In this document: positions 1 to 6,180 of the stretch, piece after piece
Layout of the letters: each line of letters opens with the position of its first letter
Numbering within the stretch: position 1 is the first letter of the stretch
IMG/VR virus record: IMGVR_UViG_3300032050_009172
Length of the DNA: 20,000 bases
Strand: one strand, 5' to 3'
Source: an uncultured virus (IMG/VR IMGVR_UViG_3300032050_009172)
Taxonomy: Duplodnaviria > Heunggongvirae > Uroviricota > Caudoviricetes
Notes under the pieces: generated by a model
What the model was told of the DNA's origin: nothing
Databases searched by the model: none
What the model saw: only the letters and a program-made list of their open reading frames with translations
Program-made: the position numbers and the translations under genes

Positions 1-1043
1 ATCAGCTGGCTTGTTCGAGACACAAACTGTTCTCGTTGAGCAGGTGAGTGCTGTATTGTTTCTAGCATACTACATGTATCAGTCATTAACTGTTTTTGTG
101 TTTTGGTAAGTTTTGCAACTGTTAGTTGTTTTTGTATAACTGCAATCAACTGCTGACGTTCGAGAGTGGTAAGCACTTCTGACTGTAGCCAAACAGGATA
201 AGATAAAGGGATCACATTAAATGGCAGTCGACGGACATTGGCGTATTCAAACAGTTCAATGATATTTTGCAAATTTAAAAATTGCAACACTGCCGACAAA
301 TGTATCTTTGCTCCGGGCAATGCCTGTTGTAGTGCAACAATGTTTGATTGCACAACTGACCATTGTGCCGGATAGCGTAAAAATTCAAATGTTGGCCCAG
401 TACCGTCTACACTAACCATCACATCAAGGTCAGATATTTTTTGTAACCGCTCAAGATGTTTTTTGGTTAGTTGAGTGGCATTGGTAATAATTCGTGTTTT
501 AAGATTTTTTTCAATAACCGCATCGAGCAATTCAATATTGTGTTTGGTTACAAAAAATTCGCCGCCAATAAAACCTATTGATTTAAGGTCTGGCAACTGT
601 TTAATAACTTCAAGTGCATGATCTTCGTGATTGATCACTATTGATTGTTTAATCCATCCAAGTTTGGCATATTCCTGACCTGATTTGGTACTATGAGAAG
701 GATTGCACGACAAGCAACTGAGATTACATGCGTTGCCAGGGAAAATTTCCAAGTCAACAATTTTAGTTTTGGTTTCATGCTCAAACACTTTAATATACTT
801 GTTTCGGATACTAGGCAAGTTATTATCTTCGTCTACTTTGCATGCCTTGCATCCATCTGGCAATGATTCTTTTGTAAGCAAATGTTGCTGAAGAGACGCT
901 AGTTCAGATGATTGCAAATAATCATTAATCGTTGCGTACTGCTTGATAGGTTTGTAATTGCAACAAGGCCTAACAGTTGGATTGAGATCTTTATCAGTAT
1001 ACATATGAATACTAACAAATGGTTTTGGACAATATTTGTTCAT
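1..1043 (-). CDS. Radical SAM protein with N-terminal twitch/SPASM-like Fe-S domain (3' end runs off window; absent from ORF track)
   Basis: Manual translation from ATG 1043: MNKYCPKPFVSIH...VRPCC...GCKAC...DLEIFPGNACNLSCLSCNPSHST...GFIGGEFF...IITNAT; CxxxCxxC and GGE motifs; no in-frame stop seen near position 1. Confidence 0.9.
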   Translation of the reverse strand, partial: MNKYCPKPFVSIHMYTDKDLNPTVRPCCNYKPIKQYATINDYLQSSELASLQQHLLTKESLPDGCKACKVDEDNNLPSIRNKYIKVFEHETKTKIVDLEIFPGNACNLSCLSCNPSHSTKSGQEYAKLGWIKQSIVINHEDHALEVIKQLPDLKSIGFIGGEFFVTKHNIELLDAVIEKNLKTRIITNATQLTKKHLERLQKISDLDVMVSVDGTGPTFEFLRYPAQWSVVQSNIVALQQALPGAKIHLSAVLQFLNLQNIIELFEYANVRRLPFNVIPLSYPVWLQSEVLTTLERQQLIAVIQKQLTVAKLTKTQKQLMTDTCSMLETIQHSPAQREQFVSRTSQL

Positions 1044-1104
1044 TCAAATACTTATTTTAAAAAGGAGAGTCTGTCATGAATAGTGACAAGAGTGACAAGA
1101 TACC

Positions 1105-1179
1105 GGGGGTGTGGTGAAACGGTATCACAGCAGACTTTTAATCTGCCAATTTCGGGTTCGAATCCCGGCGCCCCTACCA
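1105..1179 (+). tRNA. tRNA-Lys(TTT)
   Basis: GGGGGTG/CGCCCCT acceptor, GCAGA-CTTTTAA-TCTGC anticodon arm, TTCGAAT T-loop, CCA. Confidence 0.93.
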
Positions 1180-1270
1180 TATAAAAACACATTCAACTAA
1201 TGACACGGGTGGTAGCCGTGTATCTTAGTGGGCTAACGAACTACTACGCCTGAGTGTGTTCCTATATGGT
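1176..1270 (+). ncRNA. Putative structured RNA between tRNA-Lys and tRNA-His
   Basis: ACCATATAAAAACACATTCA (1176-1195) pairs with TGAGTGTGTTCCTATATGGT (1251-1270); two internal hairpins with complementary loops. Confidence 0.6.
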
Positions 1271-1342
1271 GACGTTAGTTTAGTGGCAAAACCGCGGGTT
1301 GTGATTCCGCTGTCATGAGTTCGATTCTCATACGACACCCCA
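1268..1342 (+). tRNA. tRNA-His(GTG)
   Basis: G-1 and C73 present; GCGGG-TTGTGAT-TCCGC anticodon arm; one A:A mismatch in acceptor stem; CCA. Confidence 0.92.
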
Positions 1343-1347
1343 GACAT

Positions 1348-1439
1348 GCCCCTATAGTTTAATGGTAAAACGGCGGATTTATATCCCGTAAGCAACAGAT
1401 AATTGGTTCATCTGGGTTCGACTCCCGGTGGGGGTACCA
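1348..1439 (+). tRNA. tRNA with TAT anticodon (nominally Ile) and long variable arm
   Basis: GCCCCTA/TGGGGGT acceptor; GCGGA-TTTATAT-CCCGT; ~22-nt variable region; TTCGACT T-loop; A73, CCA. Confidence 0.85.
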
Positions 1440-1444
1440 AACAT

Positions 1445-1519
1445 GGATGTATAGCATAATGGTAGTGCGCCTCCTTCATACGGAGTCAAGTGGTAGTTCG
1501 ACTCTACTTACATCCACCA
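1445..1519 (+). tRNA. tRNA-Met(CAT), elongator-type (Ile2 not excluded)
   Basis: GGATGTA/TACATCC acceptor with paired 1:72; CCTCC-TTCATAC-GGAGT; CCA. Confidence 0.88.
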
Positions 1520-1531
1520 AATAGTTTTTGT

Positions 1532-1605
1532 TCGGGTATAGTGTAATGGTAACACTACAGACTTTGACTCTGTCATTCTAGGTTCGAGCCCTAGTACCCG
1601 TGCCA
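1532..1605 (+). tRNA. tRNA-Gln(TTG)
   Basis: TCGGGTA/TACCCGT (U1:U72 mismatch), ACAGA-CTTTGAC-TCTGT, G73, CCA. Confidence 0.92.
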
Positions 1606-1611
1606 AGTTTT

Positions 1612-1686
1612 TGCCGTGTAGCTCAGAGGAAGAGCAATCGCTTGATAAGCGATAGGTCGACATTTCGAAACTGTCCATGGCAACCA
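1612..1686 (+). tRNA. tRNA-Ile(GAT)
   Basis: TGCCGTG/CATGGCA, ATCGC-TTGATAA-GCGAT, atypical T-arm GACAT-TTCGAAA-CTGTC, CCA. Confidence 0.88.
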
Positions 1687-1693
1687 AATGATC

Positions 1694-1722
1694 TTTACAA
1701 CAGTGTCTGAGTGTTGTATAAT
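1694..1722 (+). promoter_or_regulatory. Sigma70-type promoter inside the tRNA array
   Basis: TTTACA-17 nt-TATAAT upstream of tRNA-Gly. Confidence 0.7.
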
Positions 1723-1734
1723 AAGTATTTTAAC

Positions 1735-1808
1735 GCAGGGTTCGTATAGTGGTAATACCTTAGCCTTCCAAGCTAAAGCGAGGGGTTCGATTCCCCTACC
1801 CTGCTCCA
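1735..1808 (+). tRNA. tRNA-Gly(TCC)
   Basis: GCAGGGT/ACCCTGC, TTAGC-CTTCCAA-GCTAA, U73, CCA. Confidence 0.95.
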
Positions 1809-1821
1809 CAAGGAACAAACA

Positions 1822-2040
1822 ATGGACATGGATCAAGCGGCTGTATTCTTAGCTGGTAGTATTTTGACAGCAATAGGATTTGTAGTGATTGTGGCGGCGG
1901 CTGTTGCTGTCAACAACATCATAAGTCGTTACTGGAAGCCTGTAAAAATTTTCACAGCAGACAGTTGGAATCTGGGCCACGGCACAAGATTTGCTGAACC
2001 CCATGAACTTGACAAAAGTCAAGAACCCAAAGTAAAATAA
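1822..2040 (+). CDS. Small predicted membrane protein
   Basis: AAGGA RBS; hydrophobic N-terminal helix; fills the gap between two tRNAs exactly. Confidence 0.75.
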   Translation: MDMDQAAVFLAGSILTAIGFVVIVAAAVAVNNIISRYWKPVKIFTADSWNLGHGTRFAEPHELDKSQEPKVK

Positions 2041-2046
2041 AATACA

Positions 2047-2123
2047 CGGAGTATAGCACAGCCTGGTAGTGCGCCTGGTTTGGGACCAGGAGGTCCGAGG
2101 TTCGAACCCTCGTACTCCGACCA
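2047..2123 (+). tRNA. tRNA-Pro(TGG)
   Basis: CGGAGTA/TACTCCG, CCTGG-TTTGGGA-CCAGG, CCA. Confidence 0.95.
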
Positions 2124-2129
2124 ATAGAT

Positions 2130-2205
2130 GTAGGTGTGTGCCGAATGGCTAGGCGCCGGATTGCAAATCCGTATAATGCAGGTTCGAGTCCTGTCACCTA
2201 CTCCA
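2130..2205 (+). tRNA. tRNA-Cys(GCA)
   Basis: GTAGGTG/CACCTAC, CCGGA-TTGCAAA-TCCGT, U73, CCA. Confidence 0.92.
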
Positions 2206-2208
2206 AGT

Positions 2209-2392
2209 TTAGAAAAGATGTGTGAAAAACTCATTGACTATGGGCCCAACTGCTAGGGACCTTAACGTTATCCAGGTGCCGCTGGGATTAAGTTCCAGAC
2301 TGCTAGTCACAGTCGAACCATGTGCCAGGAAGGATGTGAGCTACCCGAAAGGATGTTCAGTACCTTTAAACGCAAAGCAGTATCTTTTTTAA
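2209..2392 (+). ncRNA. Putative ~185-nt structured ncRNA between tRNA-Cys and tRNA-Ser
   Basis: Closing helix 2209-2219/2382-2392, several nested hairpins, GAAA tetraloop, TGACTA/TAGTCA loop-loop complementarity; no credible ORF. Confidence 0.65.
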
Positions 2393-2399
2393 TTTTTTA

Positions 2400-2490
2400 G
2401 GAAGTGTGGCAGAGTTGGTTGATTGCAGCAGTCTTGAAAACTGCCGGCTCCGAAAGGGGTCCGTGAGTTCGAATCTCACCACTTCCACCA
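2400..2490 (+). tRNA. tRNA-Ser(TGA)
   Basis: GGAAGTG/CACTTCC, GCAGT-CTTGAAA-ACTGC, long variable arm with GAAA loop, CCA. Confidence 0.95.
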
Positions 2491-2495
2491 TATAC

Positions 2496-2570
2496 GGGTG
2501 ATTAGCTCAGCGGTAGAGTCGCTGCCTTACACGCAGTTTGTCGGGAGTTCGATCCTCTCATCACCCACCA
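2496..2570 (+). tRNA. tRNA-Val(TAC)
   Basis: GGGTGAT/ATCACCC, GCTGC-CTTACAC-GCAGT, CCA. Confidence 0.95.
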
Positions 2571-2575
2571 TTCAT

Positions 2576-2651
<76 letters not shown>

Positions 2652-2652
2652 G

Positions 2653-2856
2653 TTAGATTTTAGGTGTAAGATGTTTGATGCGTTGATTCACCACATGCTC
2701 GACTGAATTGTCGTTGTAGGCCATAGCAGCCAGCAAGCCTGTTAGATATCCGCGCTCGTAGGCCAACTGTTGTTGTTTGGTCACAAACGTTTTGCCCAAT
2801 GTTTCCATTGCAAGCAAACGCTCTATTTTTTTGATGGAGTCTTGTTTGGTTTGCAT
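2653..2856 (-). CDS. Hypothetical protein, 67 aa (MQTKQDSIKKIERLL...)
   Basis: C-terminal part of ORF 2653..3114; fits between tRNA-Phe and tRNA-Leu; TAAATA 4 nt upstream of ATG. Confidence 0.7.
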   Translation of the reverse strand: MQTKQDSIKKIERLLAMETLGKTFVTKQQQLAYERGYLTGLLAAMAYNDNSVEHVVNQRIKHLTPKI

Positions 2857-2867
2857 GATGTATTTAA

Positions 2868-2944
2868 GCCCCGGTGACGGAATTGGTATACGTGTTGGTC
2901 TTAGAAGCCAAATTTTAGGAGTTCGAGTCTCCTCTGGGGCACCA
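2868..2944 (+). tRNA. tRNA-Leu(TAG), short variable loop
   Basis: GCCCCGG/CTGGGGC, Leu-type D-arm, TTGGT-CTTAGAA-GCCAA, variable ATTTT only, A73, CCA. Confidence 0.9.
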
Positions 2945-2982
2945 AATTTAATGTAGCTTGCACAGACTTTTAAATACACTGT

Positions 2983-3756
2983 ATGGCTACAATTACTCAA
3001 ATAGAACAGTACTGGGATCAACAACCTTGTAATATAAAGCATGGGTTGGCACCAGAAGGCACAGAAGAATTTTGGAACAACATCAATCGTCGTAGATGGT
3101 TTGTTGGGCCGCATTTGTGGCAGTTGGCCGACTTTGAAAACTGCAAGGGACGGCGGGTGCTAGAACTAGGATGCGGCATTGGATCTGATGCTGAACAATT
3201 TGTACGGCATGGTGCTGAATACGTTGGGATTGATCTTAGCAGTCGTAGCATAGAACTTTGTGAGCAGAGATTTACTGTTATGGGATTAGATGCTGAATTC
3301 TATCACATGGACGCAGGCGACAGTCAGCGTGTTGCAGGGCTAGGACAATTTGATATGGTGTATGCTTGTGGTGTATTGCATCACTATCCCAATGTAGAAC
3401 AAGTGGTCAGCAATGCTTACGCAAGTCTAGCATCTGATGGGGAGTTTCGTTTCCTAGTGTATGCTCGCAACAGTTGGAAATGGGCAATGATTCAGTCTGG
3501 GCTGGACCAGTTTGAAGCGCAAGACAACTGCCCATATGCCAGAGTTTACAGTCAAGGAGAAATACAAAAACTGCTGGACGTACACTTTGATATCAAAAGC
3601 ATCAAGCAAGATTACTGTTTTATGTACAATGTAGAGCAGTACAAACAAGGAAATTATGTGTTGGAACCATGGTTTGCTGCCATGAGCGATGCACAACGCC
3701 AGGCTGTCAATCAACAGCTAGGTTGGCATTTAAGCGTGATTGCCGCAAAGCAATAA
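2983..3756 (+). CDS. Class I SAM-dependent methyltransferase
   Basis: VLELGCGIG motif I, GIDLS, FDMVYACGVLHH. Confidence 0.9.
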   Translation: MATITQIEQYWDQQPCNIKHGLAPEGTEEFWNNINRRRWFVGPHLWQLADFENCKGRRVLELGCGIGSDAEQFVRHGAEYVGIDLSSRSIELCEQRFTVMGLDAEFYHMDAGDSQRVAGLGQFDMVYACGVLHHYPNVEQVVSNAYASLASDGEFRFLVYARNSWKWAMIQSGLDQFEAQDNCPYARVYSQGEIQKLLDVHFDIKSIKQDYCFMYNVEQYKQGNYVLEPWFAAMSDAQRQAVNQQLGWHLSVIAAKQ

Positions 3757-3775
3757 ATACAAAAAGGAGATTATT

Positions 3776-4075
3776 ATGGCTATAGTTGCTAAAACTGTGT
3801 TGGTGTATGCGTCTGTAGAAGATCGAGAAACAGCAAGAACTATTATCCCTTGGAGTAATTATTTACAAATTGTTGGAGACGGTGGGCATGATGACTTTAC
3901 TGTGGTTGGTACCGCAGGTCTCGACCCGTCAGAACTAGGTCCCACCCATTTAACTGTAACTCGAAAATGGGAAAACAAAAAAAATGCAGAAGACTTTGTT
4001 GAATGGATGACTGCACAACTTTCAACTTTTAGTGTTGTTCCTGTGTCATTTACTGTAGAAGATTATACAGAATAA
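3776..4075 (+). CDS. Hypothetical protein, 99 aa
   Basis: AAGGAG RBS before ATG 3776; TAAATA at 3754; terminator downstream. Confidence 0.75.
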   Translation: MAIVAKTVLVYASVEDRETARTIIPWSNYLQIVGDGGHDDFTVVGTAGLDPSELGPTHLTVTRKWENKKNAEDFVEWMTAQLSTFSVVPVSFTVEDYTE

Positions 4076-4105
4076 CGCATGATCAGATTGTCTGACACAA
4101 GTTAT

Positions 4106-4140
4106 AAAAACAGTAGGCCAGTCCTACTGTTTTTTTTTTT
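4106..4140 (+). terminator. Intrinsic terminator, possibly bidirectional
   Basis: AAAAACAGTAGG-CCAGT-CCTACTG followed by T11. Confidence 0.85.
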
Positions 4141-4146
4141 GCAAAT

Positions 4147-4223
4147 GCCCCGGTGACGGAACTGGAATACGTGTCTCTCTCAAAAGGAGAATTCTGAGGG
4201 TTCGAATCCCTCCTGGGGTACCA
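4147..4223 (+). tRNA. tRNA-Leu(CAA), short variable loop
   Basis: GCCCCGG/CTGGGGT, TCTCT-CTCAAAA-GGAGA, variable ATTCT only, A73, CCA. Confidence 0.9.
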
Positions 4224-4252
4224 CTATCAATAAATATTTTTGAAAGTTGAAA

Positions 4253-4723
4253 ATGAAAAAGCTCGATATAGCATCAGTAGCAGAATTTATCCAGAAACAA
4301 ACGCCCGAAACTCGCATCTACCTTGGCTGCGACTCTGAACGAATCAAAATTGACGGTACCTGGTATGCCGACTATGTGTTGGCCATTGTGGTACACATCA
4401 ACGGCAACAACGGCTGCAAACTGTTTGGCGAAGTTCAACGCGAGCGTGTGTGGGACGTGAAACCAGGCAAACCTGCCATGCGTTTGATGACCGAAGTGTA
4501 CAAGGTTTCAGAACTGTATTTGAAACTGGCTGACGTACTAGAAGGCCGTCAAGTTGAAGTTCACTTGGACATCAACCCAGACGAACAATACGGTTCAAGT
4601 TGTGTGATCTCGCAAGCTGTGGGCTACATCAAAGGAACATGCAATGTGATTCCGTTTGTGAAGCCAGAAGCATTTGCAGCATCATACGCGGCAGATAGAT
4701 TTAAGAGTTTACGAGCTGCCTAA
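4253..4723 (+). CDS. RNase H-like YkuK (DUF458) family protein
   Basis: IYLGCDS, AIVVH, RLMTEV, EVHLDIN, KPEAFAASYAAD motifs. Confidence 0.85.
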   Translation: MKKLDIASVAEFIQKQTPETRIYLGCDSERIKIDGTWYADYVLAIVVHINGNNGCKLFGEVQRERVWDVKPGKPAMRLMTEVYKVSELYLKLADVLEGRQVEVHLDINPDEQYGSSCVISQAVGYIKGTCNVIPFVKPEAFAASYAADRFKSLRAA

Positions 4724-4736
4724 TAAGTAACGGAAT

Positions 4737-4810
4737 GCAGGATTAGTTTAGGGGTAAAATAGAACCTTGCCAAGGTCCAGTCACCAGTTCGATTCTGGTA
4801 TCCTGCTCCA
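4737..4810 (+). tRNA. tRNA-Gly(GCC)
   Basis: GCAGGAT/ATCCTGC, GAACC-TTGCCAA-GGTCC, U73, CCA. Confidence 0.92.
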
Positions 4811-4814
4811 CTTA

Positions 4815-4888
4815 GCTCTCATAGTATAAAGGCATTACACTACATTGGTAATGTAGAAACACTGGATCGTTACCAGTTGGGAGCACCA
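4815..4888 (+). tRNA. tRNA-Thr(GGT)
   Basis: GCTCTCA/TGGGAGC, CTACA-TTGGTAA-TGTAG, atypical T-loop ATCGTTA, CCA. Confidence 0.88.
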
Positions 4889-4893
4889 ATTCT

Positions 4894-4968
4894 CGGCCCT
4901 TGGTGAAATGGATATCATGCTTGTCTTCGAAACAAGCGGTGGGAGTTCGATCCTCTCAGGGCCGGCCA
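4894..4968 (+). tRNA. tRNA-Arg(TCG)
   Basis: CGGCCCT/AGGGCCG, CTTGT-CTTCGAA-ACAAG, A20, G73, CCA. Confidence 0.92.
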
Positions 4969-4990
4969 ATAAAAAACCTCAAACTCCGTC

Positions 4991-5046
4991 ATAGAAAAAT
5001 ACAATAGCAAAATGCCTTGACTTAGGTATGTTCTATACTATATACT
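4991..5046 (+). promoter_or_regulatory. Rubrerythrin promoter with upstream OxyR-like half site
   Basis: ATAG-N7-CAAT (4991-5005); TTGACT (5017)-18 nt-TATACT (5041). Confidence 0.5.
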
Positions 5047-5070
5047 AGTGATGTCACTATAGGAGGAAAC

Positions 5071-5508
5071 ATGACACAATCTGTAAAAGGTACCCGTACC
5101 GAAGAAAACTTGAAGGCGGCATTTGCCGGAGAATCGCAAGCCAATCGTCGATACTTGTATTTCGCAAACATGGCCGACGTAGCAGGCGACAATGACGTTG
5201 CTGCCTTGTTCCGTTCAACTGCCGAAGGCGAAACTGGACATGCACACGGTCATATGGAATACTTGATCGAAGGTGGTGCTGGAGATCCCGCCACTGGCAT
5301 GAGTGCCAAATCTGTTGAGCAGGCTCTGGAAAGTGCTATTCATGGCGAAACACATGAATACACTGACATGTATCCTGGCATGGCCAAAACTGCCAGAGAC
5401 GAAGGCTTAGACGAGATTGCTGACTGGTTTGAAACACTGGCCAAAGCCGAACGCTCACATGCCAATCGTTTCACCAAAGCCCTGGCTGCTCACAAAGAAG
5501 CACAATAA
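5071..5508 (+). CDS. rbr: Rubrerythrin (short form, no fused rubredoxin domain)
   Basis: [40 protein letters not shown] di-iron motifs; AGGAGG RBS. Confidence 0.95.
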
Positions 5509-5518
5509 GGAGACGGAA

Positions 5519-5647
5519 ATGGAATACGTATGCACTGTATGTGGCCATGTCCACAATGAAGAGACAGATGGTAAATTTGACGATTTGCCAAAATACTATA
5601 ACTGTCCAGAGTGTGGTTGCGGTAAGGAAGAATTCCAGGCAATGTAA
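5519..5647 (+). CDS. Rubredoxin
   Basis: MEYVCTVCGHVH...DDLP..YNCPECG..KEEF; two CxxC; AAGGAG RBS. Confidence 0.9.
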   Translation: MEYVCTVCGHVHNEETDGKFDDLPKYYNCPECGCGKEEFQAM

Positions 5648-5648
5648 C

Positions 5649-5696
5649 TTGACAACAATGTAGAACTGTGTTATACTGGTTCTACATTGTTAAATA
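5649..5696 (+). promoter_or_regulatory. Sigma70 promoter within a 13-bp inverted repeat, followed by TAAATA
   Basis: TTGACA-17 nt-TATACT; AACAATGTAGAAC (5654-5666)/GTTCTACATTGTT (5679-5691). Confidence 0.75.
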
Positions 5697-5701
5697 GTTA
5701 T

Positions 5702-5875
5702 ATGAACGATCCAAAATCTTCCAAACTCACTGACGCTGTGCGAGAGGCTCTTGCCAAAAAGCATGAGGCTGCTCGACCCACAGTAAAAACCAAAACTACC
5801 AAGACCAAACAAAACTACGGCGCACCAATGATCAAAGGAGCACCTGTTAGAAAAGCCAGCGGAAGAGGTGGCTGA
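5702..5875 (+). CDS. Small basic hypothetical protein
   Basis: ATG 5 nt after TAAATA; TGA/ATG overlap with next gene. Confidence 0.7.
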   Translation: MNDPKSSKLTDAVREALAKKHEAARPTVKTKTTKTKQNYGAPMIKGAPVRKASGRGG

Positions 5876-6180
5876 TGGCTAACGACTTTGCTAAATTCAA
5901 AAACTCAGCTCGCCGTCATAAAACAGATGTTGCAATTGCTAGACAAGTCAAAATTGCCAAAAGTCATAGCACCTACAACTTACGAAGCATTAGGCAAACA
6001 CATCGCCTGGCCAAACATCATGCCATGGACTGCGGCAATCCTGCATGTTACTTGTGTGGCAATCCACGTAAGACACATAAAGACAAACTTACAGCCCAAG
6101 AGAAAAAACTATTTCAAGATTTAGATTCCCTCAACCACCATCACTCAAACGGAAACAACAATGAAAATTATTCACAGTAA
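5875..6180 (+). CDS. Basic hypothetical protein with possible Zn site
   Basis: HAMDCGNPACYLCGNPR; coupled to neighbours. Confidence 0.75.
   Translation: MANDFAKFKNSARRHKTDVAIARQVKIAKSHSTYNLRSIRQTHRLAKHHAMDCGNPACYLCGNPRKTHKDKLTAQEKKLFQDLDSLNHHHSNGNNNENYSQ

Follow-up and report, generated by a model that had tools for sequence, protein, structure and literature searches.

Why are two neighbouring tRNA genes of a large phage held apart by a long spacer? The question is raised by a stretch of 20,000 nucleotides, here called the window, from an uncultured virus of the Caudoviricetes (IMG/VR record IMGVR_UViG_3300032050_009172). It is part of a phage genome of 364 kb (virus record G001) that is complete and carries direct terminal repeats, and whose nearest cultured relatives are jumbo phages, e.g. 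PA5oct, at ~45% identity (one protein only). The window contains 17 tRNA genes at 1105-4968, all on the plus strand (ARAGORN, in agreement with Rfam). Most adjacent tRNAs are spaced by 5-12 bases; the gap between tRNA-Lys(UUU) and tRNA-His measures 89 bases and holds no credible open reading frame (ORF). This spacer is one cargo class of a widespread phage family, in which a shared RNA stalk, anchored on the CCA end of the upstream tRNA, surrounds freely swapped interiors. That the stalk is a processing signal which frees a stable small RNA is the best-supported reading, and we give it about an even chance.

The small stable RNAs of the T4 and T5 tRNA regions have long been annotated without a role. 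The family described here is a large natural data set for this old question: more than 100 units with one stalk of fixed length and fixed mismatch, ~80 different cargoes and a link to tRNA-Lys(UUU).

Results and discussion

The spacer folds together with the ends of both flanking tRNAs

tRNA-Lys(UUU) occupies 1105-1179 (+) according to ARAGORN and scores 64.5 bits with the Rfam tRNA model; with its 3' ACCA (1176-1179) the 5' strand of the stalk begins on the outer side. Downstream, ARAGORN calls tRNA-His(GUG) at 1269-1342 (+). Since G1268 is able to pair with the discriminator base C1339, as read from the sequence, it is taken as the encoded G-1; the gene thus extends over 1268-1342, and UGGU at 1267-1270 represents positions -2 to +2. 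Positions 1176-1195 (ACCATATAAAAACACATTCA) are complementary to 1251-1270 (TGAGTGTGTTCCTATATGGT) over 20 positions, except for a 2x2 AA/CC mismatch (1184-1185 versus 1261-1262) and one U.G pair (1192/1254). ACCA of tRNA-Lys(UUU) hereby pairs with U(-2)G(-1)G(+1)U(+2) of tRNA-His (U1267-G1268-G1269-U1270). An earlier, sequence-only reading of the spacer had described this basal helix with its AA/CC mismatch and one G-U, which is seen directly in the sequence, and had let it take in the ends of both tRNAs, which agrees with the ARAGORN coordinates and with G1268/C1339. The same reading had proposed a three-way junction, and this is exactly the minimum-energy fold of 1176-1270 (95 nt, -34.1 kcal/mol). 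Shuffles of the same bases reach -20.7 +/- 3.4 kcal/mol (z -3.96), and one of 200 folds equally well; without the CCA/UGG ends the z value is -2.73.

The 5' strand of the stalk (1176-1194, +) consists of N73-CCA, UAUA, the AA of the mismatch (1184-1185) and AACACAUUC, as defined by the fold, the pair tables of the family and the pair counts of ten natural variants. The 3' strand (1252-1270, +) reads GAGUGUGUU, CC, UAUAUGGU, its last three bases being G-1, G+1 and U+2 of tRNA-His. At the mismatch site (1184-1185, +), A1184 opposite C1262 is the fixed A.C mismatch of the family, located at the fifth base 3' of the CCA. A1185 and C1261 are unpaired here, while the same position is paired (A-U or G-C) in most relatives. 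Two hairpins are enclosed in the fold. Hairpin 1 (1196-1229, +) has an outer stem ACUAA/UUAGU, an inner stem ACACGG/CCGUGU and a 7-nt loop, GUGGUAG (1209-1215); hairpin 2 (1230-1251, +) has a 4-bp stem, GGGC/GCCU, and a 14-nt loop that contains CUACUAC (1241-1247). The two loop segments could form seven pairs, one of them G.U. By chance, loops are complementary over all seven bases in 2.3% of shuffles that preserve their composition and in 0.8% of random draws; the match is thus unusual, though judged after the fact. All seven candidate kissing pairs are invariant in ten variants, so that covariation speaks neither for nor against them.

Loop 1 is also complementary, with UGGUAG at 1210-1215, to CUACCA, the last six bases of tRNA-Lys (1174-1179), and the CCA end thus has two possible partners within the cassette. 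TGGT-type words show no overall enrichment across the cargoes of the family. A T-box-like UGGN/NCCA motif in the cargo loops was dismissed likewise for lack of enrichment, the enriched words being T-arm-like, and so was a hammerhead-like reading of CUAAUGA..., where no GAAA follows the hairpin (by eye).

Could the spacer be a decayed tRNA, or a neutral sequence that folds by chance? Its 89 nt are about the size of a tRNA, and some cargoes of the family carry T-arm-like hairpins. Nevertheless, neither ARAGORN nor the Rfam tRNA model finds a cloverleaf at 1180-1268, and none of the 117 family units introduced below shares more than 30 nt with a tRNA called by ARAGORN. Neutrality, moreover, is ruled out by the 96-100% conservation across contexts and by compensatory changes. 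Both versions of this explanation are therefore extremely improbable.

A family of CCA-anchored stalk cassettes in phage tRNA arrays

A CCA-anchored stalk cassette was defined as a helix of ~18-21 positions that starts from C74 of an upstream CCA and closes 40-250 nt downstream. The stalk of the window, which runs from C1177-G1269 to C1194-G1252, belongs to this type. A search of IMG/VR with an exact 17-mer of hairpin 1 yielded 11 loci, seven of them true homologues and four (L003, L005, L009, L012) chance matches in unrelated GC-rich DNA. Several of the homologues carry the element in tandem rows of units that start with ...(CCA or UUA)UAUAAAAACA and finish with UGUU(U/C)CUAUAUGG, around unrelated interiors. 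A gapped pattern built from two 10-base stalk cores is found at no fewer than 121 IMG/VR loci. Among 163 matches to this pattern the distribution is bimodal, the helix being extended by at least four more pairs in 141 and by three at most in 22. With one substitution allowed per core, 149 distinct unit sequences were collected: 117 in sense orientation, 30 other-strand readings of the same elements and two odd ones. The family is present on more than 120 uncultured aquatic phage contigs.

All units are located in tRNA arrays. Exactly on a CCA begin 95 of the 117, namely 78 at the end of an ARAGORN tRNA and 17 more after a CCA; another 11 follow UUA in tandem rows. The next tRNA starts -1 to +2 bases past ...CUAUA in 36 of the 117 units, and there the GG that pairs with C74-C75 is G1-G2 of this tRNA, or G-1/G1 in the case of tRNA-His. 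Within 600 nt of the units, 566 tRNAs lie on the same strand and none on the opposite one, which gives a unit orientation of 117 to 0. Helix and tRNA context, for which the sequence-only reading had recommended a search of related phages, recur in many phage contigs, on the tRNA-sense strand. At two loci (L110 739-806, minus strand; L128 465-532, minus strand) a 68-nt tRNA-like RNA follows directly after the stalk. It scores 41-45 bits with the Rfam tRNA model, is not called by ARAGORN, and has an odd anticodon arm and a TCA end instead of CCA.

Concerning prokaryotes, a stricter pattern gave five matches in 185,579 species (one genome each). Four of them (L135-L138) are chance matches without tRNAs, and the only real one lies on a 1.5-kb contig with nine tRNAs that was binned into a metagenome-assembled genome of Planktophila. 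The family is recurrent but uncatalogued, and it is restricted to phages, all of them uncultured. In 50,697 phage records, a family unit had no blastn match (the low-complexity filter may hide the AT-rich stalk), and other megablast and blastn searches matched tRNAs only. A cmscan of window positions 1-6000 against Rfam (E up to 1) reported 17 tRNAs and nothing else, with no match at 1180-1268, so that the Y RNA, YrlA or other tRNA-associated motif which the sequence-only reading had considered did not appear among the Rfam families. For 14 related loci (47 kb, E up to 0.1), the matches listed are tRNA, tRNA-Sec and three weak sub-threshold matches to unrelated families. We found no earlier description of the family in the literature. 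A catalogue of 8,495 candidate RNAs from IMG/VR (PMC10690425) may contain members of it.

Repeats of this kind might also be selfish DNA, that is, a miniature inverted-repeat element (MITE) which has the stalk halves as its terminal inverted repeats and spreads in tRNA arrays without a function at the RNA level. Terminal inverted repeats are indeed present, as the two near-identical stalk halves of 17-19 bp. Close relatives differ by gain or loss of whole units, and one unit, the cargo of the window, keeps 96-100% identity over ten contexts, while identity in the 150-nt flanks of these is only 48-79%. Neisseria Correia repeats, moreover, can also be RNase III substrates (PMC2649163). The orientation relative to the tRNAs, however, is fixed despite almost symmetric ends, the element never occurs outside tRNA arrays and keeps its precise start on the CCA, and neither target-site duplications nor direct repeats were seen in the flanks read. 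The transcribed strand shows a strong preference for G.U over A.C, and the interiors, which fall into 77 mutually unrelated classes, do not resemble those of a MITE family. The turnover of units would be explained by recombination between repeated stalk halves. Because orientation and context are fixed, a selfish MITE is very unlikely.

A stalk of fixed length, probably an RNA helix

According to the pair tables of the family, C74, C75 and A76 form the pairs C-G, C-G and A-U. They are followed, counted after the CCA, by U-A, A-U, U-A and A-U at positions 1-4, the fixed mismatch at position 5, three A-U pairs at positions 6-8, C-G, A-U, C-G (or U.G / U-A) and A-U at positions 9-12, U.G (or C-G / U-A) and U-A at positions 13-14, and one variable pair at position 15. 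The CCA/UGG pairing is retained in 94-100% of stalks. The mismatch position, compared in 104 stalks, is A.C in 79, another mismatch (U.U, C.A, C.U) in 5 and paired in 20. At position 6, 115 stalks comprise A-U in 100, G-C in 5, G.U in 2 and A.C in 8, which is an exchange of A-U and G-C via G.U and A.C.

For a non-circular test, 99 distinct units were chosen by the pattern and the preceding CCA only, with no filter for pairing. Positions 11-14 are paired in 99% of them. Position 15 is paired in 89%, as compared to 43% (maximum 57%) in 1000 shuffles, and uses all four Watson-Crick pairs (A-U 29, C-G 22, G-C 14, U-A 12). Position 16 is paired in 55%, and beyond it pairing falls to background, so that the stalk has a fixed length with a sharp inner end. 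Variable stalk positions contain ~107 G.U but only ~4 A.C on the tRNA-sense strand, by an approximate count. The common G.U and rare A.C, together with the same orientation of all 117 units, indicate a structure of RNA rather than a DNA cruciform. The covariation analysis recommended in the sequence-only reading thus turned out in favour of the helix: over ~100 relatives the basal helix covaries including its CCA/UGG end, and hairpin 1 has two compensatory changes.

In addition, a scan blind to the stalk sequence determined the best C74-anchored helix at every distinct CCA-ending tRNA in the loci fetched. The result is again bimodal: 104 of 852 tRNA ends have helices of 14-22 pairs, whereas a control anchor 9 bases upstream gives 11 pairs at most. 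Hereby other stalk sequence types of equal length were found (CCAUUUGUUUAGUGUUAUC/GAUAACACUAAACAAAUGG, CCAGAUUUAAUUGCAUUGGG/CCCAGUGUAAUUAAAUGUGG), mostly behind tRNA-Glu(UUC), which differ between relatives by compensatory changes. The same length in unrelated stalk sequences suggests a reader of shape and length, possibly a structure-reading factor. The generic conserved part appears to be the stalk and not the kissing-loop core. An alternative topology, in which leader and trailer of a single tRNA pair and thus enclose it, was disfavoured, since tRNA-Lys of the window has no matching leader and the variable inner stalk positions pair within units.

Second and third stalk families (CCAUUUGUUU..., CCAGAUUUAAUU...) stand behind tRNA-Glu(UUC). 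Their stalks measure 19-21 bp, are mostly perfect and enclose 20-200 nt; example sites, in tRNA-oriented coordinates, are L004 367-485, L006 104-249 and L010 192-249. Among these loci, one close relative has an internal deletion of the cargo.

Cargoes are exchanged as modules and structurally constrained

The interiors of the 117 units cluster into at least 77 classes. Within classes the stems change yet stay paired, and some single-stranded parts are invariant; one and the same class can occur behind different tRNAs. The cargo of the window is known in ten natural variants, in which 99.7% of cells are paired, and sliding the partners by 1-3 columns reduces this value to 23-50%. Two pairs of the inner stem of hairpin 1 are changed on both sides (G-C to A-U), one G.U being seen as an intermediate, and one stalk pair is changed on both sides as well (C-G to U-A). 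The outer stem of hairpin 1, the stem of hairpin 2 and both kissing-loop segments are invariant, and the loop of hairpin 2 has one variable position, 1237 (C/A). The units are portable modules, and their portability and turnover would be accounted for by recombination between the repeated stalk halves.

It is conceivable that the enclosed RNA is what matters, as a decoy, a sponge or a protein-binding RNA in the manner of Y RNAs, and that the stalk is only its binding or stabilising stem. Such a view would agree with the two invariant loops next to a covarying hairpin-1 stem, and with the conserved single-stranded segments in many cargo classes. The T-arm-like word AGGTTC, which occurs in 7 of 77 classes where 0.9 would be expected, recalls tRNA-like Y RNAs and the species 1 RNA of T4. 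On the other hand, neither YrlA nor Y RNA nor any other Rfam family was matched at E up to 1, and the complete 364-kb phage gave no match for a Ro/TROVE gene (PF05731), with controls matched in 2 of 14 genomes. At least 77 unrelated cargoes on one stalk, furthermore, point to the stalk as the selected common part. We judge a cargo-centred small RNA to be clearly improbable.

The partner is tRNA-Lys(UUU)

Two samples were used to determine which tRNAs carry stalks. The first is biased by the way the loci were found; here stalks follow 54 of 69 tRNA-Lys(UUU), 19 of 41 tRNA-Glu(UUC), 14 of 50 tRNA-Gln(UUG), 4 of 14 tRNA-Thr(GGU) and at most 8% of every other isoacceptor. The second consists of 80 loci fetched via a protein (PF04308, see below) and is independent of stalks. 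It contains 42 stalks at 1097 tRNA ends, distributed over tRNA-Lys(UUU) (31/38), tRNA-Glu(UUC) (4/21), tRNA-Arg(ACG) (2/24) and five isoacceptors with one each; tRNA-Gln(UUG) has none (0/40). All tRNAs except tRNA-Lys(UUU) taken together have a stalk in 11 of 1059 cases. The link to tRNA-Lys(UUU) is robust, that to tRNA-Glu is weaker and that to tRNA-Gln depends on the lineage.

The same tRNA has a further companion. In the window, a mini-ORF of 13 codons (1076-1117; MNSDKSDKIPGVW and stop), preceded by a strong Shine-Dalgarno sequence (AAGGAG, 1062-1067), extends 13 nt into tRNA-Lys(UUU). Mini-ORFs led by a Shine-Dalgarno sequence and ending at -15 to +45 of the tRNA start accompany 35 of 108 distinct tRNA-Lys(UUU) contexts, as compared to 23 of 1822 other tRNAs. 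Their peptides form a family M-x-SDKS(D/G)K..., along with other Lys-rich forms, e.g. MKRKSKTRKSMGVW. Variation at codon positions 1, 2 and 3 amounts to 22/29/54, about twice as much at the third as at the others, with synonymous changes in D, S, G and K. The mini-ORF may be a leader peptide that senses the supply of Lys-tRNA. A sigma-70 scan of 1043-1105, ahead of tRNA-Lys, found no promoter.

The main rival of a processing stalk rests on this partnership. As a maturation gate, the stalk would keep both the CCA of tRNA-Lys(UUU) and the start of the following tRNA base-paired, delaying or conditioning the release of tRNA-Lys, and the cargo would be a mere spacer or stability element. The specific link to tRNA-Lys(UUU) in both samples fits this well, as does the persistence of the CCA/UGG pairing, and a leader with Lys codons at the same tRNA suggests special control. 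A mere spacer, however, would not be expected to show compensatory changes and invariant loops as the cargoes do. Tandem units without a tRNA between them (L008, four in a row) gate nothing, and the tRNA link varies between lineages, with tRNA-Gln lacking stalks altogether in the independent sample. A gate is possible but, in our view, unlikely.

Proposed processing and candidate nucleases

Stalk cleavage, a nuclease to perform it, a stable product and some function of the cargo are what we infer for the processing stalk. The stalk-and-cargo cassette would be transcribed within the phage tRNA operon. Its helix of ~19 positions, about two turns with one fixed mismatch, would clamp together the 3' trailer of tRNA-Lys(UUU) and the 5' leader of the RNA that follows, and serve as a generic 'cut here' handle. 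An endonuclease would open the stalk a few bases 3' of the CCA, whereupon exonucleases would complete the 3' end of tRNA-Lys and RNase P would complete tRNA-His. The enclosed three-way-junction RNA (~80 nt) would be set free and stay stable, its ends shielded by the inner half of the stalk, and the cargo would be one of many interchangeable, structurally constrained small RNAs. By analogy with the annotation of T5 RNA III, a product of ~81 nt is predicted, with ends near 1184 (5') and 1264 (3'). Concrete predictions are RNA ends near these positions, a requirement for a duplex-specific nuclease and an influence on the maturation of tRNA-Lys.

The element is present in RNA-library contigs of three studies, and the contigs of two of them (X3, X10) continue into tRNA-His. 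The contigs break at 1190-1193, where the cargoes diverge, and the loose ends show other cargoes; these breaks were not accepted as RNA ends and are read instead as branch points of the assembly graph.

Several points weigh against a processing stalk. RNA-library contigs may include DNA and cannot show RNA ends, and the ends of T5 RNA III are a database annotation. Most loci were found with a pattern that fixes 20 bases of the stalk, which makes conservation at these bases circular. A gene for RNase III (PF14622) was found in none of 13 large stalk-bearing contigs, and G001 is without one too; a double-strand nuclease such as RNase III would thus have to be that of the host. The sequence conservation of Lys-type stalks exceeds what RNase III needs and could reflect a sequence-specific partner or homogenisation driven by recombination. 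Finally, RNase P and exonucleases should be impeded when the CCA and the leader of the next tRNA are hidden in a helix, which fits a maturation gate equally well.

Which nuclease might open the stalk? The stalk duplex, with 18-19 paired positions and one or two mismatches, has about the length of an RNase III substrate (~20 bp of duplex RNA or more). RNase P is an alternative candidate by analogy: in E. coli it removes the terminator hairpins located just behind the CCA of the valU and lysT transcripts (PMC4176162). The third candidate is encoded within the tRNA array itself, by an RNase H-like gene at 4247-4723 (+) (PF04308/DUF458, phrog_11311). Its protein is 83-96% identical across more than 100 metagenomic proteins. 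At 79 of the 80 loci fetched via it, tRNAs are found within 7 kb, and all 1348 of these tRNAs lie on its strand. D29, E83, D108, H50 and H106 are among its invariant residues, which suggest a nuclease site. The predicted model (pLDDT 95) has weak Foldseek matches to the RNase H-like superfamily (integrase core, Argonaute PIWI, endonuclease V; best E 3.3e-3). Of the 13 large stalk-bearing contigs, 11 have the gene. A complete phage of 367 kb, however, carries stalks without it, which rules the protein out as a required stalk nuclease.

Other features of the tRNA array

tRNA-Ile(UAU) at 1348-1439 (+) reaches 92 nt because of a class II-like extra arm of ~23 nt, an uncommon feature in isoleucine tRNAs; L002, L004 and L007 have calls of the same long form. 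The 194-nt gap between tRNA-Cys and tRNA-Ser (2206-2399, +) folds at -54.2 kcal/mol with paired ends and holds a GTG-initiated ORF of 56 codons that has no matches in Pfam and PHROG; it could be an RNA or a small protein. Sigma-70-like promoters close to consensus lie within the array at 1694-1722 and 2009-2038 (+) (TTTACA-17-TATAAT and TTGACA-18-TAAAAT), and a strong terminator-like hairpin stands at 4106-4134 (+), ahead of tRNA-Leu(CAA).

A wider view of the tRNA-Lys(UUU) region

tRNA-Lys(UUU) is a target of known anticodon-nuclease defences, and phage tRNAs are reported to evade such defences. One may imagine a three-part RNA cassette system around the phage tRNA-Lys(UUU), made up of a Lys-codon leader, the tRNA-Lys gene and a stalk handle that presents a shuffled RNA library. 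The leader peptide would sense the loss of host Lys-tRNA, e.g. after attack by an anticodon nuclease. The small structured RNAs, shuffled by recombination (at least 77 classes), would be decoys or regulators in the arms race of phage and host, and the PF04308 RNase H-like nuclease may release them. We regard this system as quite doubtful. Apart from that, the modular handle could be a natural scaffold for the expression of small RNAs from tRNA operons.

Comparison with known systems

RNase III processing stalks are known from the leader/trailer helices around 16S and 23S rRNA and from the R sites of phage T7. In these, sequences flanking a stable RNA form about two turns of duplex with an internal mismatch or loop, and a 2-nt 3' overhang is typical of the enzyme. 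A duplex of about two turns with an internal mismatch is shared by the window, where cleavage is a prediction by analogy. Unlike these stalks, those of the family are conserved beyond the needs of RNase III, and the phages encode no such enzyme in the 13 contigs mentioned.

As regards modularity, the PeSL cassettes of T4-type phages come close. There, repeated short motifs bracket small, quickly exchanged modules, and, as in the family, close relatives differ by the gain, loss or replacement of entire units, for which recombination at the repeats has been proposed; the PeSL repeats, however, are promoter/terminator motifs around protein ORFs, whereas those of the family are halves of an RNA helix around non-coding RNAs in tRNA arrays (PMC2839356 and PMC4122927). 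The Correia elements of Neisseria are likewise bounded by inverted repeats, and their transcripts can form a hairpin that RNase III may bind or cut (PMC2649163). They are dispersed over the chromosome in both orientations and have a conserved core, in contrast to the fixed orientation, exclusive location in tRNA arrays and unrelated cores of the family.

Among phage RNAs, the species 1 and 2 RNAs of T4 (rnaC, rnaD; NC_000866) are small stable RNAs located immediately behind a tRNA of a phage operon and, as here, have no assigned function. rnaC carries a T-arm-like hairpin, as some family cargoes do. The folds of both differ from the family in having no long CCA-anchored closing stalk, and rnaD folds no better than shuffles (z -0.9).

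The tRNA region of T5 (NC_005859) has eight annotated RNAs: six stable RNAs 'with unknown functions', two of which are tRNA-like, one 'putative tRNA-like RNA' and the 719-nt RNA X. One of these, RNA III, differs from the family in several respects. It has no sequence similarity to it (no blastn match when the 50,697 phage records were searched with a family unit), its stalk lacks the fixed mismatch, its upstream partner is a tRNA-like RNA instead of tRNA-Lys, and it is not known to belong to any family with a shared stalk and swapped cargoes. Its geometry, however, is that of the window. RNA III (106 nt), taken as the type case of the CCA-anchored stalk cassette, lies between a CCA-ending RNA (RNA I) and tRNA-His, and folds into three hairpins closed by a terminal stem, which together with its flanks forms 19 consecutive pairs between the CCA of RNA I and the UGG where tRNA-His is annotated to begin. 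As annotated, RNA III has a 3' overhang of 2 nt, of the kind typical of RNase III, and its 5' end coincides with the eighth stalk position from C74, which is the position of the fixed mismatch in the family. Like the family, RNA III is co-transcribed with tRNAs and has no assigned function. It is the closest documented case, and the proposal of the sequence-only reading for the spacer between tRNA-Lys(UUU) and tRNA-His, a stand-alone small RNA freed by tRNA maturation, agrees with it.

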